From: Nanobdellota archaeon
GTDB taxonomy: Archaea > Nanobdellota > Nanobdellia > Pacearchaeales > GW2011-AR1
Assembly (NCBI GenBank): GCA_013329055.1
Contig: DUKY01000007.1
Span: 51,146 to 115,145 of the forward strand
Direction of reading: 5' to 3'
DNA: 64,000 nucleotides
Below the pieces are notes generated by a model. It saw nothing but the letters and a program-made list of their open reading frames with translations. It was not told the origin of the DNA and searched no databases. The position numbers were made by a program, and so were the translations under genes. Position 1 is the stretch's first letter; every line of letters begins with the position of its first letter. Positions 4,338 through 57,746 of this stretch are shown one piece after another.

Positions 4338-7136
4338 TTGAAAATGAACGATAAAATAAAAATAAAAGGTGCCCGACAGCACAATTTGAAGAATATAAGT
4401 ATTGAATTACCTAGAGATAAATTAATAGTTATTACCGGTTTATCGGGGAGTGGAAAATCCACTCTTGCATTTGACACATTATATGCTGAGGGTCAAAGAC
4501 GATATGTTGAAAGTTTAAGTTCTTATGCTCGGCAATTTTTAGGTTTAATGAGCAAGCCGGATGTTGATTCTATAGAGGGGTTAAGTCCTGCAATTTCTAT
4601 TGAGCAAAAAACTACAAGCAAGAATCCTCGTTCTACTGTCGGAACAGTTACTGAAATTTATGATTATTTAAGGCTACTTTATGCTCGAATTGGAATTCCT
4701 CATTGTCCTATACATAATATTAAAATTGAAGCTCAATCTCCTGAAAAGATTTCTCAAAAAATTGCTGAAGATTTTACAGGACAAATTACTATTTTATCTC
4801 CTATTATTAGACAGCAAAAAGGAACTTACGAACAATTATTTTTAGATTTAAACAAAGAAGGTTATGCAAGAGCAAGAGTAAACGGACATATATTAAGAAC
4901 TGATGAAACAATCAAGCTTGAAAGATACAAAAAACATGATATTGAGGTAATAATTGATCGGTTAGATGTGAAGGATAAATCAAGGCTTGCTGAAGCAGTT
5001 GAAAATGCATTAATTAAATCTAAGGGATTACTAATAGTTGAAAATAATGGAAAGGATAAATTCTATTCAGGAAATATGACTTGCCCTAAGTGTGATATTT
5101 CATTTGAAGAATTGCAACCTAGAATGTTTTCATTTAATTCACCTTTTGGGGCTTGTGAAGGATGCCATGGATTAGGAATTAAAATGATTTTTGATGAAGA
5201 TTTAATTATTCCCGATAAAGAATTAAGTATCATTGACGGGGCAATAAAAATTTATGGAAAAATTGATATGTCTTGGCGTGGACAACAATTGCAGGCAGTT
5301 GGAAAAAAATTTGGTTTTGATATTTATACACCAATAAAAAAATTTAATGAAAAACAAATTCAAACATTATTTTATGGTTCAACTGAAGCAATTAAAGGCA
5401 AATGGGATACAGGGGCAAATATGAATTTTGAAAATGGATGGGAGGGTTTGATTCCTCAATCAGAAAGATTGTATAAATCAACAGATTCAGATTATCGAAG
5501 AAAATTTTTAGAAAAGTTTATGAGAGTGAATAAATGTTCAGTTTGTGACGGAAAAAGATTAAAGCAAAAAATATTAGCGGTTAAGATTAATAATAAATCA
5601 ATAATTGATGTTACAGACTTATCAATACAAGAAGTGATTGTATTTTTTAATAATTTAGAATTAACTAAACAAGAAGAAAAAATTTCAAGGCAGATTTTAA
5701 AAGAAATACGTGAGAGATTAGGATTTTTAGAGAGAGTTGGTTTAGGTTATTTGACATTGTCAAGAAATGCCGGGACATTATCAGGAGGAGAAGGGCAAAG
5801 AATCAGGCTTGCAACACAGATTGGATCAAATTTAACAGGAGTTTTATATATTTTAGATGAACCTTCAATCGGACTTCATCAAAGGGATAATCATAAATTA
5901 ATTGAAACATTACAAAAATTAAGAGACATTGGAAATACTTTGATTGTTGTTGAACATGATGAAGATACGATTATGAATGCTGATTATGTTGTGGATATTG
6001 GTCCTGGTGCAGGAATTCATGGAGGAGAAATTGTTGCAAAAGGTACTCCTCAAGAAATTATTAAAAATAAAAATTCTTTAACAGGACAATATTTATCAGG
6101 AGTTCAATTTATCGAAGTTCCTAAAATTCGACGAGAAAAGGGTGAACCAATTAAAATTGTTGGATGCACAGAAAATAACTTAAAAAATATTGATGTTGAA
6201 ATTCCTACAAGAATTTTAACTTGTGTTACGGGAGTATCTGGTTCAGGAAAATCTACATTAATTAATGAAATTTTATATAAAGGAATGATGAAAAAAATTC
6301 ATCAATCAAATATTAAAGCAGGAGAGCATAAAGGGATTTATACAGAAGCTTATATTGATAAAGTAATTGTTATTGACCAATCCCCAATTGGCAAGACTCC
6401 TAGGAGTAACCCTGCAACTTATATTGGAGTTTTTGATGAAATCCGAAAAGTTTTCGCGAGTACTAAAGAAGCTAAAATGAAGGGATATAAATTAGGAAGA
6501 TTTAGTTTTAATGTTCCTGGTGGAAGATGCGAAAAGTGCAGTGGAGATGGGACAATTAAAATTGAGATGAATTTTTTACCTGATGTTTACATTGAATGTG
6601 AAGAATGCAAAGGCAAAAGATATAATTCTGAAACATTGGAAATAAAATATAAAGATAAATCTATTGCAGAAGTTTTGGATATGAGTGTTGAGGAAGCTTT
6701 GGATTTTTTCAAATTTATTCCATCTATTAAAAATAAATTAGAAACATTAAATCAGGTGGGTTTAGGTTATATTAAATTAGGGCAAAGTTCAACAACTTTA
6801 TCAGGGGGTGAAAGCCAGAGAATAAAATTGACAAAAGAATTATCTAAACGTGGAACAGGACAGACATTATATTTACTTGATGAACCTACAACAGGGTTAC
6901 ATTTTCATGATACAAGAAAATTAATTGGGGTACTAAATAACTTAGTAGATAAAGGGAATACGATTATAGTAATTGAGCATAATTTAGATGTTATTAAATG
7001 TGCAGATCACATAATTGATTTAGGTCCTGAAGGAGGAGACGGGGGAGGATACATTGTCGCAACTGGAACTCCAGAAGAAATTGTTAAGGATAAAATAAGT
7101 TATACGGGCAAATATTTAAAGCCTTTACTTAAATGA
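4338..7136 (+). CDS. uvrA: Excinuclease ABC subunit A
   Basis: Two ABC ATPase modules ([18 protein letters not shown]), Zn-finger Cys pairs and LSGGE signature motifs are present. Confidence 0.95.
7090..7134. repeat. 45-bp direct repeat, copy 1 (covers the last 14 codons of uvrA)
   Basis: Perfect match to 8594-8638: ataaaataagttatacgggcaaatatttaaagcctttacttaaat. Confidence 0.9.
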
Positions 7137-7506
7137 TATCTATTCTAAATATTTTAATATAATATTAATTTTAAATCCTTTAATTCGTTGCTTCTCTTAT
7201 TTAATCTTTTATAAATATCTCTAAAATTGTTTTTGGGCTTTTTCTACAACTGACTTTCTAATTTAATCATACAAATAATAGTTAGTTGTCAGGAGATAAG
7301 TCTCTGAATTAGTTTTATTTGATTCTCTCCGATTTTTCATTCATATTGGGTAGTATCTGAAGCACACACACAGTACTAAAGAATACCTCAGACAAGAGAA
7401 ATGATGTCAATATTTTTTAATTGTCATAACTCATCAGTATCTTCGAGAACTTGGAGATACTGCTAATAAGAATAAGTTTTTAAATATTTAATCATTCTCT
7501 TCGATA

Positions 7507-8562
7507 ATGGAAGAAGAAAATACCACAAAAATAAATGTTTTAAGCATAATTTTCAAAATCACTTATTTTATTGCTTTAATAGGACTTTTATATTTTTATT
7601 TCTTTGATATAGGAAGAAATATTTCAATGATTAATGGAGATTTAATTAATTTTAAAGAATTTATTATTATGTTACCATTATTAATTATCCCATTATTAAT
7701 TCCAGTTAAAGAACTAAAATATAAATTATTATCTTTTATAGGATTGGCAATTATATTAACAACAATCGGAATAATTTGGATTCATTATGGGGAATGGGGT
7801 GATTTGATTTTTTATATATATGCTCTTGTAATTTTAATAATAATAATAATAAGCCATTATTTATTAAGATATGTTGATACAAAAGCAAATAAATTGGTGA
7901 AAATTATGGGAGTTATTATATTACTAATAATATTAATCTCTTATACAGCCTATTTTATATCTTCAAAAGCATACTTTCAAGATTATTTAAAGATAAGTGA
8001 ATCAAATGACAGATTAATTAATGAGATAAAATGTAAAGGTGCTTATACAACAACAGACTCTTTAGAATTAAAAAATCTTTGTGACCAAATAGAATATGTT
8101 CCACATGAAACTACTCACATTCATATGGTGCATTCAAATGAAGCATGGAGAGAATTCAAAGCATATTGTGAAGAAGTTGTTAAAAAGGTTCAAATAGATA
8201 AATATTATTTTGATGAATATGGTAATGCAGGGTATTTTTTTATAAGAAATCCCTCTTTATTTGATACTAATTGTAACCCTGAACAACCAAGACCCGAAAT
8301 ATTAGACCCTTATTTGTGTGATGTACTAGCAAAATCAAACTCAAAAATATTACAAGAATATTTTGATAATCCAAAGAGAACAGGTCCTGATTGTTATGAA
8401 AGAGTTGTTGCTGAAACGGGGCAAATAGAACTTTGTGAGAAATCATCAAGTCCTCAGTCATGTTATTTATATGTAGCTAAAGTAAGAGATGATAAAAGAA
8501 TATGTGATGAATTAATAAGATATCCGCTTGTAAGAGAAACTTGTTTAGATAATTTTAATTAA
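7507..8562 (+). CDS. Membrane protein with ~5 N-terminal TM helices and a C-terminal Cys-rich extracytoplasmic domain, function unknown
   Basis: Hydrophobic N-terminal half, then about 190 aa containing 10 or more Cys. It lies inside the segment flanked by the 45-bp direct repeats. Confidence 0.55.
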   Translation: MEEENTTKINVLSIIFKITYFIALIGLLYFYFFDIGRNISMINGDLINFKEFIIMLPLLIIPLLIPVKELKYKLLSFIGLAIILTTIGIIWIHYGEWGDLIFYIYALVILIIIIISHYLLRYVDTKANKLVKIMGVIILLIILISYTAYFISSKAYFQDYLKISESNDRLINEIKCKGAYTTTDSLELKNLCDQIEYVPHETTHIHMVHSNEAWREFKAYCEEVVKKVQIDKYYFDEYGNAGYFFIRNPSLFDTNCNPEQPRPEILDPYLCDVLAKSNSKILQEYFDNPKRTGPDCYERVVAETGQIELCEKSSSPQSCYLYVAKVRDDKRICDELIRYPLVRETCLDNFN

Positions 8563-8593: not shown

Positions 8594-8638
8594 ATAAAAT
8601 AAGTTATACGGGCAAATATTTAAAGCCTTTACTTAAAT
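8594..8638. repeat. 45-bp direct repeat, copy 2 (retains a uvrA 3'-end coding fragment)
   Basis: Identical to 7090-7134. It overlaps the stop of the minus-strand gene 8633..9409. Confidence 0.9.
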
Positions 8639-9409
8639 AGAATTTATTTTTACACTAATAGGATTTTTAAAAACTTCTTCAAAATAAGTTTCAATATCTC
8701 CCATATATTCATCAAACCACTTTTCTTTTTTACCAAAATTTTCTTTTATTGAATGCAAATTTTGATAATTATCAGGAAATAAATCTGCCCCCCATCTCCA
8801 ATCAGTTTTGTATTCCCAGTTATTATGTTCAACAACAAAAATATTATTTCTGGGACGTTTAATATTTTTATCCCACCCCCACAATTGATTAGAGGTTGGA
8901 TCAGCAATGATAAAACCTTTTTTATCGTGCAATAAAAAAGGAAATGCAGTATAGCAATGATCATCATAAGAATCTAATAATACTGATGCATTTGCATATC
9001 CAATAGACATTCCTGCAAACATGACATTTTGTGCTGAAGGACAACATTCTGCATGGGGAAATGAAGAATTACTTTTTTTTCCAAGTATATAATGATGAAA
9101 CATTAAGTCATAGATAAAATCAATATGCCCCATAAGTTCTTTTTGATTATCAATTTTCATTGAACAAAATTCAGGAACATCCTTATGAATCTCTAAAAGA
9201 TATTTCATTTTTGACCCCCAAGTTTTGTCATCATATGCAATTAATCTATTTTTTGTAGGATCAATATTTTGAATATCAGATTGATATCTTAATGAATTTA
9301 GTTCAATTCCATATTTTTCATTTAAATCTTTTTCATAAGCATATGTGAAAATTGAAAAAGGGTTTATCGATTGACAATCTATATTTGATGCATCATTTAA
9401 ATTTTTCAT
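8633..9409 (-). CDS. Hypothetical protein with a Cys/His/Asp triad spaced as in arylamine N-acetyltransferase/transglutaminase-like folds (paralog 1)
   Basis: Candidate triad residues sit in ECCPSAQN, HCYTAFPF and IIADPTSNQLW. It is about 45% identical by eye to the adjacent ORF 9435..10196. Confidence 0.5.
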   Translation of the reverse strand: MKNLNDASNIDCQSINPFSIFTYAYEKDLNEKYGIELNSLRYQSDIQNIDPTKNRLIAYDDKTWGSKMKYLLEIHKDVPEFCSMKIDNQKELMGHIDFIYDLMFHHYILGKKSNSSFPHAECCPSAQNVMFAGMSIGYANASVLLDSYDDHCYTAFPFLLHDKKGFIIADPTSNQLWGWDKNIKRPRNNIFVVEHNNWEYKTDWRWGADLFPDNYQNLHSIKENFGKKEKWFDEYMGDIETYFEEVFKNPISVKINSI

Positions 9410-9434: not shown

Positions 9435-10196
9435 TTATTCTTTTTGGTTATGCCTAATTTTTATCGAATGCTTAAAAACTTCTTCGAAATAAGTTTCAAT
9501 ATCATAAAAATAAATTCTTAAAGCATCTTTATTCCTTTTAAAAGAATCTAAATTTAGATAGCAATTTGGATAAAGATTATCATCTCCAAATTCATTACCT
9601 TTTTCATAATCCGTTTGATATTCCCAGTTATTATGTTTTACCACAAAAATATGATTTCGTGGAGGAATTATTTCCAGGCATTTCCAAAGTTGATTAGATG
9701 TTGGATCAGCAATAATAAAACCCTTGTCATTTTTTAATACAAAAGGAAATGCTGTATAACAATGATTATCTGTTTGATCGCATAAAACAGAAGCATTTGG
9801 ATAACCAGAAAGCATACTCGCAATCATAATATTATGTGCTGAAGGAGCACATTCATTAGTTGGAAAAACGTTGCTTCGTTTTTTTCCTAAAATATAATGA
9901 TGAAACATTAAATCATAGATAAAATCTATATGTTTCATTAATTCTTCTTCTTTATCTAATTTCATAGAACAAAAACCCTCGATATTTGGATACAGTTCTA
10001 AAATCGTTTTAATTTTACGTCTATTTTTTATATAACCATATTGCAAATTTCCTTCTTTAAAAATATCGATATGGTTTACATTAGAATTGTTATTAACTTT
10101 CTTTAATTCAATTCCATATTTTTCATTTAAACTTTTTTCATAAGCATTAGTCCAGATAGAAAAAGGTTGAATTTCTGCAAAATTTTCAAGTTTCAT
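9435..10196 (-). CDS. Paralog 2 of the NAT/transglutaminase-like Cys-His-Asp protein
   Basis: Blocks shared with 8633..9409: NECAPSAHN, HCYTAFPF, GFIIADPTSNQLW, IDFIYDLMFHHYILGKK. Confidence 0.5.
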   Translation of the reverse strand: MKLENFAEIQPFSIWTNAYEKSLNEKYGIELKKVNNNSNVNHIDIFKEGNLQYGYIKNRRKIKTILELYPNIEGFCSMKLDKEEELMKHIDFIYDLMFHHYILGKKRSNVFPTNECAPSAHNIMIASMLSGYPNASVLCDQTDNHCYTAFPFVLKNDKGFIIADPTSNQLWKCLEIIPPRNHIFVVKHNNWEYQTDYEKGNEFGDDNLYPNCYLNLDSFKRNKDALRIYFYDIETYFEEVFKHSIKIRHNQKE

Positions 10197-23220: not shown

Positions 23221-23503
23221 AACCGCCAAGCCCCTGAAAGAAGATATGATTTAAATCATATTATAAACCACTGATAGGAATAGTGGACATTATTTATTTT
23301 TTTATTTAATTCCTTAAAATTTTATAAAATCCCGACGGGATTTTCCTCATAACCCATGAAAGCTTCTTTAAATTCACCCTCAAAAGTTATTCGTTCATTT
23401 ATTCGAACTTTCAGAGTTACTCGCCCGCAACTTTTAAAGTTTTTTGAATCTACTCAGATTAAACCCTTGAAATAAATATATACCTTTCTGTTTGTATATA
23501 TTA

Positions 23504-23599
23504 TGACCCCGACGGGAGTTGAACCCGCGACACCCAGATATCTCCATTGATAATTAAATCTAAGAGTCTGGTGCTCTAACCAGGCTGAGCTACGGAGCC
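23504..23599 (-). tRNA. tRNA-Lys (anticodon CUU) with a ~21-nt intron at the canonical 37/38 position
   Basis: Manual fold: acceptor GGCUCCG/CGGGGUC, D arm GCUC-AGCCUGGUUA-GAGC, anticodon stem CCAGA/UCUGG with loop CUCUUAA interrupted by GAUUUAAUUAUCAAUGGAGAU. T arm GCGGG-UUCAACU-CCCGU, discriminator A. Confidence 0.75.
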
Positions 23600-24030
23600 A
23601 TAGTAAAACATTAGTGATTTACTTTAAAAATATGTTGATTTACGTTAGCACCAGACGTAACTGGGGACGTTGAAAATTTGCCAAAAAGAAATTTTTAACA
23701 ATCAGAGAATTAAATTACAATTCTCTGAATCTAACCAGGCTGAAGCTACTGCAGCCATAGTAAAACATTAGTGATTTACTTTAAAAATATGTTGATTTAC
23801 GTTAGCACCAGATGTAAAGAGTCTGGAGACGTTGAAAATTTGCCAAAAAGAAATTTTTAACGATCAGAGAATTAAATTACAATTCTCTGAGTCTAACCAG
23901 GCTGAAGCTACTGCAGCCATAGTAAAACATTATTGATTTACTTTGGCACCAGACGTAAAGAGTCTGGGGACGTTGAAAATTTTGTAAAAAGAAATTTTTA
24001 ACGATCAGAGAATAGATTGATTGAAAATTT
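23600..24030. repeat. Tandem array upstream of tRNA-Lys: about 2.7 units of ~160 bp, each carrying a promoter-like segment, a 27-nt degenerate copy of the tRNA 5' end and a 10-bp-stem hairpin
   Basis: Repeated gcagccat (complement of the tRNA 5' end GGCUGCAG…) at ~23751-23758 and 23911-23918. Repeated cagagaattaaattacaattctctg hairpin. Confidence 0.8.
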
Positions 24031-29525: not shown

Positions 29526-29736
29526 GGCGGTTGTGGTATACAGAAATTAAAAATTTCTGTCCCTACAGGATTAAACTGTGCCTTCGCACAGAAAGATATT
29601 AAAAATCCTGAAGGTACAGAGATTAAAAATTCTGTCCTACAGGATTAAACTGTGCCTTCGCACAGAAAAATATTAAAAATCCTGCAGGTAACGGTTATTA
29701 CATACGGTTGGGGTCAGAGCAAAGAGGGTTCGACTC
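29526..29736 (+). pseudogene. Truncated/disrupted tRNA-His copy: 5' 15 nt, then a 150-bp hairpin-dimer insertion, then a mutated anticodon/T region, with no 3' acceptor strand
   Basis: GGCGGTTGTGGTATA | 29541-29690 insertion | ACGGTTATTACATACGGTTGGGGTCAGAGCAAAGAGGGTTCGACTC, then the duplicated promoter region. Confidence 0.55.
29541..29690. repeat. Tandem dimer (76 + 74 bp) of a cruciform-like hairpin module inserted in the D-loop of the tRNA-His pseudo-copy
   Basis: Each unit has cagaaattaaaaatttctg and caggatt…ctgtgccttcgcacag…aatcctg hairpins and ends in ggta. Confidence 0.8.
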
Positions 29737-29805: not shown

Positions 29806-29878
29806 GGCGGTTGTGGTATAACGGTTATTACGTCCGGTTGTGGTCCGGGCAAAGAGGGTTCGACTCCCTCCATCCGCT
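29806..29878 (+). tRNA. tRNA-His (anticodon GUG) with an encoded G-1
   Basis: Manual fold: G-1, acceptor GCGGUUG/CAUCCGC (one U·U), D arm GUAU-AACGGUUA-UUAC, anticodon stem UCCGG/CCGGG with loop UUGUGGU. T arm GAGGG-UUCGACU-CCCUC. Confidence 0.75.
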
Positions 29879-30352
29879 TAATAAATCAGAGACGAACCCT
29901 GGGTTCGATGAAAAATTTTGTGGTAGAAACTTATTCTTTCAGATAAAAATTCAAGCATTGAATAAAAGAGTTTCGTGCAAGATTTTGAACATCCCTCCAT
30001 CCGCTTATTTTCTTTACAGAAAATTGCGTAAGTTCGGGAGTCTTCGACTCCACAATTCGCATTCCGTGAAAGCTTCTTTAAATCAAGGAAAATTTTGATT
30101 TATTTGAACTTTCAGAAATGCTCAATTCGCATTCCGTGAAAGCTTCTTTAAATCAAGGAAAATTTTGATTTATTTGAACTTTCAGAAATGCTCACCATCC
30201 GTTTAATAAATAAGAGGCGAACCCCGGAGTTCGATGAAAAATTTTGTGGTAGAAACTTATTTTTTCAGATAAAAATTCAAGGATTGAACAAAAGAGTTTC
30301 GTGCAAGATTTTTAACATCCCTCCATCCGCGTTTTATTTTTAAGAAAGATTT
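29879..30352. repeat. Array of 3-4 modules downstream of tRNA-His, each bounded by a copy of the tRNA 3'-terminal 12 nt (CCCTCCATCCGC)
   Basis: 3'-end copies at 30003-30014, 30195-30201 (partial) and 30319-30330. Modules 29879-30002 and 30202-30318 are ~90% identical. The middle module has a tandem ~82-bp duplication (30046-30189). Confidence 0.8.
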
Positions 30353-41669: not shown

Positions 41670-41784
41670 TTTTTTATATTTCCTGAAATAATAATGTTAG
41701 AAAATCTTTGATTTTCTATATATTCAAAACTTTTACTTCTGATCTTTGCGTAGGCAAAGTTTAGTTTTGAATTGATTATCTCTT

Positions 41785-42024
41785 TCATGGTCTCCTCAAT
41801 CGTTTTAATGCAATTGTAAATCCTATTACTCTTGCATAATAATTCTTTCCTAATTTTTCTAAAATTTCAGTTGAATATTTCTTTACAGAATCTTTTCCAT
41901 CTCTTGCACTTGGTAAAACCGAAATTTTTACATTTTTGCAAGTCTTAAATTGATTTTTCAGACTTTCAATAAAATTATCTGTTACTCCTAGTTTTCCTAA
42001 TTGTATGTTTCTTATTGCTACCAT
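41785..42024 (-). CDS. YhbY/CRS1 (CRM) RNA-binding domain protein
   Basis: GKLGVTDNFIESLKN…KISVL pattern in a ~80-aa protein. Confidence 0.6.
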   Translation of the reverse strand: MVAIRNIQLGKLGVTDNFIESLKNQFKTCKNVKISVLPSARDGKDSVKKYSTEILEKLGKNYYARVIGFTIALKRLRRP

Positions 42025-57128: not shown

Positions 57129-57685
57129 TCACTACTTACAGAGAATCAAAGATTCTCTGAAACACAAAATCTATACTGTGCCTACGCACAGATCAGAAGT
57201 ACAGATTTTGTTGTGTCCTAAAAAATTTCTAAAGAAATTTTTGGGAATTCAGAGATTGAAAATCTCTGGAACTTCAGGGAACCTGAAGTCTTCAAAAGGC
57301 GTTACTTTTGAAGTAATCTAACCCTTGGGTTATATTCACTTCAAAATATACTTGTTTTGAAGTCCCAGAGAATTTGAAAAATTCTCTGAGCCTCCTTAAT
57401 GGGTACGGAGGTACAGAGAATCAAAGATTCTCTGAAACACAAAATCTATACTGTGCCTACGCACAGATCAGAATTACAGATTTTGTTGTGTCCTAAAAAA
57501 TTTCTAAAGAAATTTTTGGGAATTCAGAGATTGAAAATCTCTGGAACTTCAGGGAACCTGAAGTCTTCAAAAGGCGTTACTTTTGAAGTAATCTAACCCT
57601 TGGGTTATATTCACTTCAAAATATACTTGTTTTGAAGTCCCAGAGAATTTGAAAAATTCTCTGAGCCTCCTTAATGGGTACGGAG
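57129..57685. repeat. Two tandem ~285-bp units, each a string of ~9 short hairpins, each ending in a copy of the tRNA-Trp 3' end
   Basis: Unit period 57129 to 57414. Hairpins include cagagaatcaaagattctctg, ctgtgcctacgcacag, cagagattgaaaatctctg, cttcagggaacctgaag. Terminal ccttaatgggtacggag occurs at 57394-57410 and 57669-57685. Confidence 0.85.
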
Positions 57686-57746
57686 GGAATCTAACCCCCG
57701 TCTGCCGGGCTGGAGCCGACCATAATAAACATTATACTACGCACCC
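57675..57746 (-). tRNA. Candidate tRNA-Trp (anticodon CCA) with atypical D- and T-loops
   Basis: Manual fold: acceptor GGGUGCG/CGUACCC, anticodon stem GUCGG/CCGGC with loop CUCCAGC, T arm GGGGG-UUAGAUU-CCCUC. D-loop AAUGUUUA lacks GG and T-loop lacks C56. Confidence 0.5.

Follow-up and report, generated by a model that had tools for sequence, protein, structure and literature searches.

At positions 29526 to 29736 of the window, by which we mean the whole 64-kb stretch of DNA analyzed here, lies a decayed copy of tRNA-His that is split by an insertion of small hairpins. The functional gene follows downstream, with further repeats behind it. We refer to the repeated modules as H1, H2, H3, and M5. 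The features of the locus, with the evidence in parentheses, are as follows.

29526-29736, plus strand: decayed copy of tRNA-His, preceded by a promoter copy of its own (comparison with the real gene, strain alignment); 5' part 29526-29539, insertion 29540-29689 (150 nt), rest 29690-29736
29540-29689, plus strand: two tandem units of about 74 nt, each H2+H1 (TRF, period 74, 2.0 copies, 93% identity)
29541-29559 and 29616-29635: H2 hairpins inside the insert (the former by pattern match, the latter read from the sequence)
29564-29612, plus strand: H1 copy 1 (covariance model, 69.8 bits)
29638-29686, plus strand: H1 copy 2 (covariance model, 72.5 bits)
29806-29879, plus strand: functional tRNA-His(GTG) (ARAGORN, Rfam)
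29866-30332, plus strand: region 3' of tRNA-His (sequence, alignment, nhmmer)
29866-29880, 29993-30007, 30193-30205, and about 30319-30332: tRNA-His 3' end, repeated directly in four copies
29881-29991 and 30206-30317: two "A" elements between these copies
30036-30061: 3' fragment of a variant tRNA-His
30067-30200, plus strand: two tandem 70-nt units carrying M5 (TRF, period 70, 100% identity; nhmmer)

The two 74-nt units separate position 13 from position 14 of the decayed tRNA-His, which is also truncated in the T loop. The intact gene, 280 nt downstream of the split copy, represents the "empty site" GGTAT/AACGG (the slash marks the junction). ARAGORN made no call on the decayed copy, even with the insert removed, and called a sister-genome copy (L057) tRNA-His(GTG) once its 74-nt insert had been removed. 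In that sister genome, each tRNA-His-like unit has a promoter and a T-run terminator and carries an H2+H1 insert. We rejected an archaeal tRNA intron as an explanation of the insert, since the D-loop junctions lack a bulge-helix-bulge and the copy in the window is a pseudogene. On inspection, the junctions GGTAT/ACAG and CAGGT/AACGG could form a weak central helix of 4 bp in L057, but not the helices on either side of it. A single H2+H1 unit of the locus folds with z = -6.6, and the M5 tandem units, which are present as a single copy in some assemblies, fold with z = -3.0. The distance from tRNA-His to the next gene is 515 nt in the window, compared to about 10 to 60 nt in the relatives L063 to L065.

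The GC content of the window is 28%. Its archaeal (DPANN) features include TFS, a diphthamide synthase, and an intron-type insert in tRNA-Lys, and contigs identical to it occur in Rifle groundwater DPANN genomes. On these grounds, we assigned the window to DPANN archaea and rejected a bacterial or organellar origin. Modules of the same kind were located at tRNA-Lys, between a YhbY-like and a PIN_9 gene, and at tRNA-Trp.

23326-23344, no strand assigned: palindrome AAAATCCCGACGGGATTTT (hairpin scan)
23357-23423, plus strand: M5 module 3' of tRNA-Lys and antisense to it (nhmmer, E = 9e-14)
23503-23600, minus strand: tRNA-Lys(CUU) (ARAGORN, Rfam, sequence)
23575-24013, minus strand: tandem units of about 162 nt upstream of tRNA-Lys (TRF; repeat families D2, D5, and D16)
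23703-23727 and 23865-23889, minus strand: H2 hairpins in the Lys units (H2 pattern)
41670-41785, minus strand: H1-H2-H3 leader between the YhbY-like and PIN_9 genes (gene context, fold z = -5.0)
41698-41718, minus strand: H2 of this leader
41723-41771, minus strand: fifth H1 copy (covariance model, 66.6 bits; compensatory inner stem CTTTGC/GCAAAG)
57137-57686, plus strand: array of 2 x 275 nt 3' of tRNA-Trp (TRF, 2.0 copies, 99-100% identity)
57164-57211, plus strand: H1 copy 3, antisense to tRNA-Trp (covariance model, 46.5 bits)
57439-57486, plus strand: H1 copy 4 (covariance model, 47.5 bits)
57675-57746, minus strand: tRNA-Trp(CCA) (ARAGORN, Rfam)

Each 275-nt unit of the Trp array comprises about 10 hairpins (H2, H1, an A/T hairpin, H2', four others, and H2'') and is closed by a 12-nt copy of the tRNA-Trp 3' end (57400-57411 and 57675-57686). 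The array as a whole folds with z = -9.7. Array units in the sister genome differ exactly by a 77-nt H2+H1 block, and others differ by whole hairpins. The Trp array was recovered in independent assemblies; one assembly has an N gap there. Repeat copy number varies among assemblies. Since both the His and the Trp arrays are present in independent assemblies, they are not artefacts of a single one.

At the Lys locus, tRNA-Lys(CUU) carries an insert of about 21 nt at the canonical intron position. Each 162-nt unit upstream of it holds a promoter copy and the first 27 nt or so of tRNA-Lys, followed by an H2 hairpin, an A/T-rich hairpin, and a hairpin resembling an anticodon arm. We read the units as probable pseudo-tRNA-Lys copies with hairpin insertions. 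The palindrome AAAATCCCGACGGGATTTT includes a 10-nt copy of the tRNA-Lys 3' end (CCCGACGGGA). The M5 module is about 65 nt long and has the form GAAAGCTTCTTTAAAT ... ATTTATTTGAACTTTCAGA (GAAAGC...TTTCAGA), with imperfect inverted repeats of 16 to 19 nt at its ends and a variable center. The 16-mer GAAAGCTTCTTTAAAT, found at 23358, 30068, and 30138, is weak evidence taken alone, as 0.67 matches are expected per window. A profile of the whole module detected just three copies in the window (nhmmer, E from 1e-13 to 1e-17), which bears out an earlier report of a second module 3' of tRNA-Lys and twice 3' of tRNA-His. The copy at tRNA-Lys has conserved ends and an unrelated center, and it does not fold (z = -1.1). 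In the sample examined, M5 was confined to two loci, His and Lys, in the host lineage and its sister, and it is best read as a second, younger member of the same repeat landscape as H1.

The leader between the YhbY-like and PIN_9 genes contains H1, H2, and a third hairpin region with a Shine-Dalgarno-like AGGA, and it reaches the ATG. No tRNA lies near its H1 copy. A strain that is 98% identical has an identical element in this spacer; relatives at 55 to 64% identity have a different gene order, and the spacer is missing.

H1 is an element of about 49 nt, and its near-invariant core is an inner hairpin, A-CUGUGC-CUWC-GCACAG-A. The first-pass annotation of this DNA had described that hairpin from the tRNA-His insert and both Trp units with coordinates that are right to within a few bases, and it had claimed two variable loop positions, of which only one varies (T/A). 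Exact matches to CTGTGCCTWCGCACAG occur at 29576-29591, 29650-29665, 57176-57191, and 57451-57466, and a variant with two mismatches occurs on the minus strand at 41744-41759. Over the window, 9 strand-matches were observed, compared to 0.01 expected from dinucleotide shuffles. The core is enclosed by an outer helix of 7 to 12 bp whose sequence drifts while its pairing is kept, with internal loops of 3 nt on the 5' side and 9 to 14 nt (about 11) on the 3' side. In copy 1, for example, the outer helix is CAGGATT/AATCCTG and the inner hairpin CTGTGC-CTTC-GCACAG. The covariance model identified exactly five copies in the window, at 46 to 72 bits. The sixth-best score was 19 bits, which is noise, and the distribution is cleanly bimodal. 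The element is therefore not a low-complexity sequence.

We examined the fold in an alignment of 31 distinct H1 copies drawn from 233 kb. Pairing was kept in 94.9% of cells, compared to 76% after shuffling, and slid-partner controls reached only 23 to 56%. Double-sided changes were present in 12 of the 15 pairs. Outer arms paired with their cognates formed 8.8 bp on average, compared to 5.9 bp with non-cognate arms and 4.3 bp when the flanks were shuffled. Copies that only the model recognized carry compensatory changes in the inner stem (CTTTGC/GCAAAG, CTGCGC/GCGCAG, and CTGCT/AGCAG), and the 3' loop of one subfamily, GCAGGGGCAA, is able to re-pair with the inner hairpin. Every significant copy falls outside long ORFs. 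H1 is a real multi-copy family with a conserved fold backed by covariation, and it is non-coding.

A search of the modules against Rfam at the gathering threshold returned only tRNA matches; at a permissive E-value, it added only chance-level miRNA and snoRNA overlaps (E of about 0.3 to 0.9, far under gathering scores). Comparing the alignment by eye with known motifs, we rejected C/D box, H/ACA, K-turn, and hammerhead RNAs, for which the box sequences, pocket geometry, and G.A pairs are missing. Integron attC sites were rejected as well, the R''/R' core sites being absent. Nor would a dimeric protein operator explain H1, because the outer arms differ within a single genome and yet remain complementary. 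We did not find the core sequence, or hairpin repeats in Pacearchaeota/Woesearchaeota-type lineages, described in the literature, and the H1 family is apparently undescribed so far.

H1 combines with H2, with A/T-rich hairpins, and with the third hairpin, H3, which displays a ribosome-binding site. H2 has the form CAGARAWT-loop-AWTYTCTG (CAGARAAU...AUUYUCUG as RNA). A pattern search of the window gave 10 occurrences, compared to 0.01 expected, and nine of them lie at the His, Lys, and Trp tRNA loci. The composite units measure about 75 nt (H2+H1) or 115 nt (H1-H2-H3), and H2+H1 units from six contexts are 67 to 81% identical along their full length. The 75-nt unit is gained or lost as a whole; comparisons of pseudo-tRNAs and indels do not always distinguish insertion from deletion. 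The sequence at one end (TACAGAR...) is not an inverted copy of that at the other (...CCTGCAGG or ...TTTGTTGT), so that the unit has no terminal inverted repeats. It also showed no consistent target-site duplication: a 2-nt TA overlap is possible at the His locus, and there is none at the Trp unit.

Most H1 copies lie in 5' leaders or intercistronic spacers between co-directional genes, and 17 of 19 in such contexts are sense oriented (p = 7e-4). Some are directly upstream of ribosomal proteins P1, S12, and L2, others 5 to 55 nt upstream of mature tRNA-Leu, tRNA-Asp, and tRNA-Gly. The genes 3' of H1 are unrelated (PIN nuclease, membrane proteins, ribosomal proteins, tRNAs), and the H1-bearing element can extend to their ATG. 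A TTTTATAA-type box precedes the first hairpin by about 27 nt at L045, L052, L014:623, and L053:234, so the element may start the transcript there. This promoter distance is not fixed: TATA-like boxes lie about 27 nt upstream in some loci, not all. The proposed preference for tRNA flanks holds for H1 in a modest form, most copies lying beside protein genes. A tRNA or tRNA fragment was found within 150 nt at 8 of 27 non-redundant loci, compared to 13% of non-coding space, an enrichment of about 2.2-fold (one-sided p = 0.02). M5 was the only tRNA-restricted module in the sample, as judged from two loci in one lineage. Direct repeats derived from tRNA 3' ends, also anticipated in the first pass, do flank inserts at Trp (12 nt), His (15 nt, four copies), L044 (13 nt), and L054 (21 nt). 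Overall, these repeats vary from 12 to 21 nt and enclose 50 to 263 nt of hairpins. At L062, which is free of H1, 17-nt tRNA-end repeats surround an unrelated insert.

We scanned 185,579 species genomes for the 18-nt core of H1 and obtained 14 loci in six DPANN genomes, plus nine GC-rich bacterial matches attributable to chance. The core is enriched in DPANN genomes by orders of magnitude. A scan of metagenomes yielded about 22 low-GC family loci and seven chance matches. The core is identical across genomes of 24 to 40% GC. The His, Trp, and PIN_9 loci of four related Pacearchaeota genomes (about 20 kb per genome; 81 kb with seven tRNAs in total) contained no H1 in a covariance search with filters off. 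In the genomes sampled, H1 is found only in some Pacearchaeota/Woesearchaeota-type DPANN archaea, and its distribution is patchy. We also considered a viral origin of the modules and rejected it. IMG/VR contains no family-type H1 copy, its single match to the 18-mer being GC rich and due to chance; the M5 16-mer matches 96 unrelated viral contigs, none of which also has the M5 right end.

Together, these data lead us to a reading to which we assign a probability of about one-half: H1 and its partners form a lineage-restricted, modular, transcribed repeat family, comparable to REP/BIME or BOX elements, that is amplified at tRNA loci by recombination between tRNA-derived direct repeats. That the family is dispersed is supported by three unlinked sites in the window, six other DPANN genomes, and about 22 metagenome contigs. 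Contrary to the earlier proposal, local tandem amplification contributes as well and is evident in the 2.0-copy arrays at 99 to 100% identity. Insertion is indirectly supported by the H2+H1 block that interrupts a tRNA-His copy and varies among the Trp units of the sister genome, and by the clean, H1-free tRNA-His loci of related genomes, but no gene for a transposase, a RAYT-like protein, or an integrase was found near any copy in the 64-kb window, flanking gene tables, or Pfam matches. We infer that H2+H1 units spread by insertion through a non-autonomous mechanism. They may accumulate at tRNA genes because these loci already hold direct repeats, namely, copies of the tRNA 3' end and pseudo-tRNA copies made of a promoter plus the 5' half. 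Unequal recombination between such repeats would amplify the sequence in between and would yield the tandem units of 74, 70, 162, and 275 nt. As transcribed leader or intercistronic RNA, H1 units may be tolerated and possibly exploited, supplying stable 5' or spacer hairpins together with a ribosome-binding site. The sense bias and the extension of the repeat to the start codon with a ribosome-binding site inside are more easily explained by a selected RNA function than by purely selfish DNA. Moreover, the identity of the 18-nt core across genomes of such different GC argues for a conserved binding partner and not for neutral spread.

The same observations raise a tentative alternative, which we consider possible yet doubtful: that H1, together with H2 and H3, is primarily a functional RNA motif acting in cis, to which a dedicated protein or nuclease binds. 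Such a motif could protect 5' ends, serve as a processing site that separates cistrons or tRNAs, or control translation of genes of the translation apparatus. Its many copies would represent a regulon and not mobility, and the copies at tRNA loci would be working leaders or trailers duplicated with their genes. The sense orientation in co-directional contexts, the copies upstream of P1, S12, L2, and the three mature tRNAs, the upstream box in several loci, the loop able to re-pair, and an invariant core beside a covarying helix all agree with this idea. It is harder to reconcile with the unrelated downstream genes, the Trp-array copies antisense to both flanking genes, the two copies inside a dead tRNA-His, and the missing motif at the His, Trp, and PIN_9 loci of four related genomes. 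In addition, G.U pairs are nearly absent from the helices (3 of 450 cells), which is uncommon for a helix under selection as RNA alone. A more speculative combination would make H1-H2-H3 a portable "expression leader," joining a hairpin platform (5' or intercistronic) to a ribosome-binding site, and H1 the site recognized by an RNA-binding protein or endonuclease specific to DPANN archaea. The cassette would then have been copied before tRNAs, ribosomal-protein genes, and membrane-protein genes, and the tRNA-His-like units of the sister genome would be expressed small RNAs and not dead genes.

We regard it as improbable that the blocks flanking tRNAs are scars of plasmids or viruses that integrated into tRNA 3' ends, duplicated the att core, and were mostly deleted, with the hairpin modules as leftover arm sequences. 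Integration footprints of tRNA fragments are well documented in Sulfolobales and Thermococcales, repeats of 12 to 21 nt from tRNA 3' ends flank inserts at Trp, His, L044, L054, and L062, and another insert in the window, 1.5 kb long, is bordered by a 55-nt duplicate of the 3' end of uvrA. However, no integrase or transposase Pfam match was found in the 64 kb or beside related arrays, and IMG/VR holds no copy of the family. The same H1 and H2 occur at four or more different tRNAs with different repeat cores and at many non-tRNA sites. Integration at 3' ends does not produce upstream pseudo-tRNA units bearing promoters, and whether an array unit contains H2+H1 does not depend on the tRNA-end repeats. 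Two further readings have little standing. It is very improbable that H1 encodes a protein of about 33 to 40 amino acids with an ...LNCA(F/Y)AQ... motif, even though gene callers predict a 40-codon ORF at 41.67 to 41.79 kb with ATGA overlaps at both ends, and ORFs in the same frame with a start exist in L009 and L047/L050/L053, the W position giving Tyr or Phe. In L006 the frame is open but has no start codon, and in many copies, including those in L016, L022, L044, L052, L054, and L013, it is start-less or cut by stops beside the core. The 3' internal loop ranges from 9 to 14 nt and not by multiples of three, substitutions strike first and second codon positions (e.g., ACG, ATG, AGG), and the observed changes are compensatory for pairing, not synonymous. 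Chance A/T-rich palindromes combined with purely local replication slippage at each tRNA locus, with no family at all, are hardly credible. The 28% GC genome, the M5 16-mer with its 0.67 expected matches per window and 96 unrelated viral contigs, and the tandem duplication that clearly operates in the window could be cited in favor. For H1, this reading is already refuted by a GC-rich core expected 0.01 times, the bimodal model scores, the enrichment of the 18-mer in DPANN, and the strong covariation; for M5, no viral contig with the 16-mer also has the right end.

Returning to the repeat-family reading, we compared H1 with known systems. REP/BIME elements, known from enterobacteria and pseudomonads, are mobilized by RAYT and are believed to affect mRNA stability or termination. 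Like them, H1 is a short extragenic hairpin in multiple copies (five in 64 kb) whose pairing is kept by compensatory change, it forms mosaics with short motifs, and it lies in transcribed operon spacers and is patchy between lineages. It differs in lacking a GTAG or CGTC head, its foot being A-CTG...CAG-A with variable outer arms (31 copies), and in its two-level hairpin, which combines a large asymmetric internal loop with an invariant 18-nt core. Furthermore, it is archaeal and strongly sense oriented, frequently extends as far as the start codon and includes the ribosome-binding site, and has no RAYT in the 64-kb window or flanking gene tables. BOX elements of Streptococcus pneumoniae are transcribed and able to alter the expression of neighboring genes, and BOX, Correia, and RUP-type repeats are mobilized in trans or by uncertain means. 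The H1 family shares with these its modular hairpin boxes, variable module number, and intergenic position near gene starts, whereas its sequence is unrelated, it belongs to another domain of life, and it is associated with tRNA pseudogene arrays, which is not known of those families. Correia and RUP have terminal inverted repeats and TA duplications; H2+H1 lacks inverted termini. Archaeal and bacterial MITEs are likewise small, non-coding, and multi-copy and behave as insertion/deletion blocks, and M5 alone has imperfect inverted ends (16 to 19 nt) around a variable center. Unlike MITEs, H2+H1 has no terminal inverted repeats and no evident target duplication of fixed length, no parent insertion sequence was identified for it, and its orientation bias is strong. 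The direct repeats of tRNA 3' ends that bracket inserts recall archaeal tRNA-fragment integration footprints, but the inserts here are only 50 to 263 nt, lack an integrase, and contain the same modules at several tRNAs and at non-tRNA sites. A palindromic H2+H1 inside an RNA gene copy resembles Rickettsia palindromic elements, which insert into RNA and protein genes, except that the interrupted tRNA copies are dead duplicates and not working genes.

DPANN archaea have very small, tightly packed genomes in which repeat families are not expected to be tolerated, and to our knowledge almost nothing is known of their non-coding elements. With its covarying fold, invariant 18-nt core, and patchy distribution, H1 is useful as a new candidate structured RNA/DNA motif that can be searched for directly and as a marker with which to follow the genome dynamics of Pacearchaeota and Woesearchaeota. 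The family also offers an explanation for the unusually long, repeat-filled tRNA flanks and pseudo-tRNA arrays, regions that can disrupt assembly and mislead tRNA annotation in these lineages. If the units are portable leaders carrying ribosome-binding sites, they would provide an example of how signals for gene expression spread in archaea with reduced genomes. If H1 is in addition the recognition site of a dedicated protein, the family would be a mobile module of post-transcriptional control, linking unrelated genes in a single regulon in organisms with tiny genomes.

Three tRNA genes were found in the window, which has a GC content of 28% and a high coding density and encodes, among other proteins, UvrA, UvrB, two PEP synthases, HisRS, a TFS zinc ribbon, diphthamide synthase, form III RuBisCO and the CCA-adding enzyme. 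Rifle groundwater metagenome contigs and the MAGs GCA_013331835.1 and GCA_000805965.1 share identical proteins and DNA with it; the nearest PIN_9 homologues from beyond the species carry Pacearchaeota or Nanoarchaeota annotations. On these grounds the organism is a DPANN archaeon. Tandem repeats including tRNA fragments occur at all three tRNA loci, and the arrays were seen again in independent assemblies.

23503-23600, minus strand: tRNA-Lys(CUU), with an insert of about 21 nt at the canonical 37/38 intron position
29540-29689: two 74-nt units, 93% identical, splitting a tRNA-His copy at GGTAT|AACGG
29806-29879, plus strand: tRNA-His(GTG)
57675-57746, minus strand: tRNA-Trp(CCA)

ARAGORN called the tRNA-Lys an undetermined tRNA with a 4-base anticodon, and Rfam scored it at 52.7 bits. 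In the working tRNA-His, G-1 is encoded, residue 73 is U, and U5 and U68 form a mismatch; the tRNA-His of the sister genome (L057, 574-646) has two U.U mismatches in its acceptor stem.

The first-pass annotation had described hairpin modules common to several tRNA loci. The inner hairpin was confirmed at the His locus and both Trp units, CTGTGCCTWCGCACAG matching exactly at 29576, 29650, 57176 and 57451 (0.01 expected). The second module, M5 (about 65 nt, GAAAGC...TTTCAGA type), was recovered once at the Lys locus and twice at the His locus (GAAAGCTTCTTTAAAT at 23358, 30068 and 30138), and a profile of the whole module found these three copies alone in the window. H2 (CAGARAWT-loop-AWTYTCTG) is a third shared hairpin, with 10 occurrences against 0.01 expected, nine of them at the three tRNA loci. 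The ends of M5 are conserved and partly inverted, and its centre is variable. Folding was seen for the His copies (z = -3.0) and not for the Lys copy (z = -1.1), and the His copies of this genome and its sister differ by a compensated change (CAA/TTG versus CGAG/CTCG). M5 has the same orientation as tRNA-His and the opposite one to tRNA-Lys. Across about 500 kb of DPANN sequence it was confined to two loci of this lineage, His and Lys, and to one of the sister, His; it adds support for modules common to tRNA loci from a sample of two loci.

The inner hairpin belongs to H1, an element of about 49 nt that comprises an outer helix, a 3-nt 5' loop, the hairpin A-CUGUGC-CUWC-GCACAG-A and a 9- to 14-nt 3' loop. 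The outer helix encloses the hairpin in every family member; its sequence varies among copies while complementarity is kept. Mean helix length was 8.8 bp for cognate arms, compared with 5.9 bp for arms from different copies and 4.3 bp for shuffled flanks. Using a covariance model built on ten copies, we detected five H1 copies in the window (46 to 72 bits; no other match exceeded 19 bits) and 42 (31 distinct) across 233 kb of DPANN loci. Paired cells amounted to 94.9% in the 31-copy alignment, versus 76% after column shuffling. Double-sided changes were present in 12 of the 15 pairs, and sliding the partner by 1 to 3 columns reduced pairing to only 23 to 56%. Copies found by the model alone carry compensated inner-stem changes; in the fifth window copy (41723-41771, minus strand), CTTTGC/GCAAAG replaces CTGTGC/GCACAG. 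Just 3 of 450 paired cells are G.U, and A.C and C.A mismatches (12 together) lie mostly at helix ends. So few G.U pairs would be unusual if the helix were under selection solely at the RNA level, and would be compatible with a single-stranded DNA stage. In one H1 subfamily (L017, L022 and L024), the 3' internal loop is GCAGGGGCAA, which can pair with UGCC of the inner hairpin to give an alternative minimum-energy fold.

A scan for ACTGTGCCTWCGCACAGA in one genome for each of 185,579 species returned 23 loci. Six DPANN genomes, carrying the labels Nanoarchaeia, Woesearchaeota, Pacearchaeota or Archaeon BMS3Abin17, account for 14 of them; the remaining nine are single matches in GC-rich bacteria, about the chance expectation. 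Metagenomes added about 22 low-GC family loci and 7 GC-rich chance matches. H1 was not found, with covariance-model filters off, in 81 kb from four related Pacearchaeota loci, which were picked via PIN_9 homologues and not via the motif and contain seven tRNAs, including His and Trp.

Across 27 non-redundant loci, H1 lies mostly between co-directional gene pairs, on the same strand as the genes. These intercistronic copies start 2 to 80 nt past the upstream stop codon and are followed by H2 and then by a third hairpin with a Shine-Dalgarno sequence reaching the ATG. Among the products of the downstream genes are ribosomal proteins P1, S12 and L2, PIN_9 and several membrane proteins. The fifth window copy occupies the spacer between the YhbY-like and PIN_9 genes, in an operon running on into rpoE, spt4, S24e and S27e, with no tRNA nearby. 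Other copies lie 5 to 55 nt 5' of mature tRNA-Leu, tRNA-Asp and tRNA-Gly, or just 3' of tRNA-Ala, tRNA-Leu and one uncalled tRNA. H1 is sense in 17 of 19 co-directional contexts (p = 7e-4), the window Trp array being among the exceptions. The proposal of a dispersed family held, as H1 is shared by unlinked sites that include non-tRNA ones. The accompanying preference for tRNA flanks is real but weak for H1, since 8 of the 27 loci fall within 150 nt of a tRNA or tRNA fragment, a zone covering 13% of non-coding DNA in unbiased sequence (about 2.2-fold, p = 0.02).

Gene callers predicted a 40-aa ORF at 41670-41792 (minus strand) that spans H1 to the third hairpin, H3, and has ATGA overlaps with the YhbY-like and PIN_9 genes. 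A small-ORF reading of H1 fails, as other copies do not preserve the frame. In another H1-bearing locus (L016, 1315-1392), the segment from tRNA-Arg to the H1 that precedes tRNA-Gly contains a C-box-like GATGATGA; visual inspection revealed no clear D box in this segment, and it matched no Rfam C/D family.

H1 and H2 also occur as a two-hairpin block, H2+H1, that is gained and lost whole. The interrupted tRNA-His copy of the window comes with a duplicate of the promoter region; its anticodon stem is broken and its 3' end is missing. The real tRNA-His supplies the uninterrupted site for the 150-nt insert. The sister genome (loci L026 and L057) has three tandem tRNA-His-like units, with one 74-nt insert each at the same position. 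ARAGORN called these as tRNA-His(GTG) once the insert was removed; the window copy was too decayed for a call. Each sister unit (L057, 1-560; L026, about 1900-2400) combines a promoter copy and the 74-nt H2+H1 insert with a GUG anticodon arm that is intact, and a T7 run follows its 3' end; these units look like complete transcription units, not debris. In the sister Trp array, units with and without a 77-nt H2+H1 block are otherwise the same, and the window and sister Trp units (275 versus 179 nt) differ by whole hairpins. The His and Trp H2+H1 units of the window are 70% identical; over six contexts in three genomes and metagenome contigs, identity was 67 to 81% over the full length.

The arrays are bounded by copies of tRNA ends. 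Each Trp unit closes with the last 12 nt of tRNA-Trp. Downstream of tRNA-His lie two "A" elements, a 3' fragment of a variant tRNA-His and two M5 units, set apart by four copies of the last ~15 nt of the tRNA. The gap to the next gene holds 515 nt of repeats here, and in the related Pacearchaeota loci it is only about 10 to 60 nt long. At the Lys locus, a 10-nt copy of the tRNA-Lys 3' end lies ~160 nt downstream, beside M5. Upstream of tRNA-His and tRNA-Lys, pseudo-tRNA units that carry hairpin inserts and promoter copies are repeated in tandem, and the copy number of the pseudo-tRNA-His unit and of M5 varies among assemblies of one population. The tRNA-derived direct repeats expected around the modules were present at Trp and His, and a repeat-bounded layout with H1 recurs in L044 (13-nt repeats) and L054 (21-nt repeats). 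The same layout occurs without H1: in L062, a related Pacearchaeota contig (6650-6812), tRNA-Trp is followed by two units, each made up of a 50-nt insert of higher GC content and 17 nt copied from the tRNA 3' end, and the insert is unrelated in sequence to the window Trp units. Therefore, arrays of this kind arise independently of H1 in the clade and are separable from the H1/H2 modules.

Elsewhere in the window, a 55-nt direct repeat (7090-7144 and 8594-8648, 93% identical) takes in the final 47 nt of uvrA and 8 nt more, and brackets a 1.5-kb segment with an ORF (7507-8562, 351 aa) that has no Pfam match. The arrangement parallels that of the tRNA-end repeats and has the look of an insertion in which the end of a protein gene (3') was duplicated. 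An adjacent paralogous gene pair (8633-9409 and 9435-10196, minus strand; 805-nt period, 74 to 84% nucleotide identity), gave no significant Pfam match.

We take the closest analogues of the H1 family to be REP/BIME, BOX-type mosaic repeats, MITEs and the tRNA-fragment footprints of integration. Unlike REP/BIME, H1 has no GTAG or CGTC head, and H2+H1 lacks the terminal inverted repeats of a MITE. No target duplication of fixed length was evident for H2+H1: a 2-nt TA overlap is possible at the His site, and none was seen at the Trp unit. No bulge-helix-bulge, the mark of an archaeal tRNA intron, was found, the modules matched no Rfam family, and the H1 core sequence was absent from the literature searched. 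On these defining features the H1 family departs from the known element types.

Chance or slippage alone is excluded for H1. Origin of the tRNA-flanking blocks as integration scars would account for the tRNA-end repeats, but not for modules common to different tRNAs and to non-tRNA sites. Pfam revealed no integrase in the window or beside related arrays, and IMG/VR contained no viral copies of the family type. We favor, at even odds (about 0.5), a lineage-restricted, modular, transcribed repeat family that would have spread by insertion and local amplification. H1/H2 units would insert, and unequal recombination between tRNA-derived repeats would then amplify them locally. Such spread is argued for by how unevenly the family is distributed, the gain and loss of whole blocks, the inserts in dead tRNA copies, the antisense orientation in the Trp array and the lack of relation among downstream genes. 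The bias towards the sense strand, the placement immediately ahead of start codons and the presence of a ribosome-binding site within the repeat point to a role of the hairpins as RNA, or at the least to survival of only those copies that are compatible with expression. A purely regulatory or processing RNA seems to us less likely than this combined reading.
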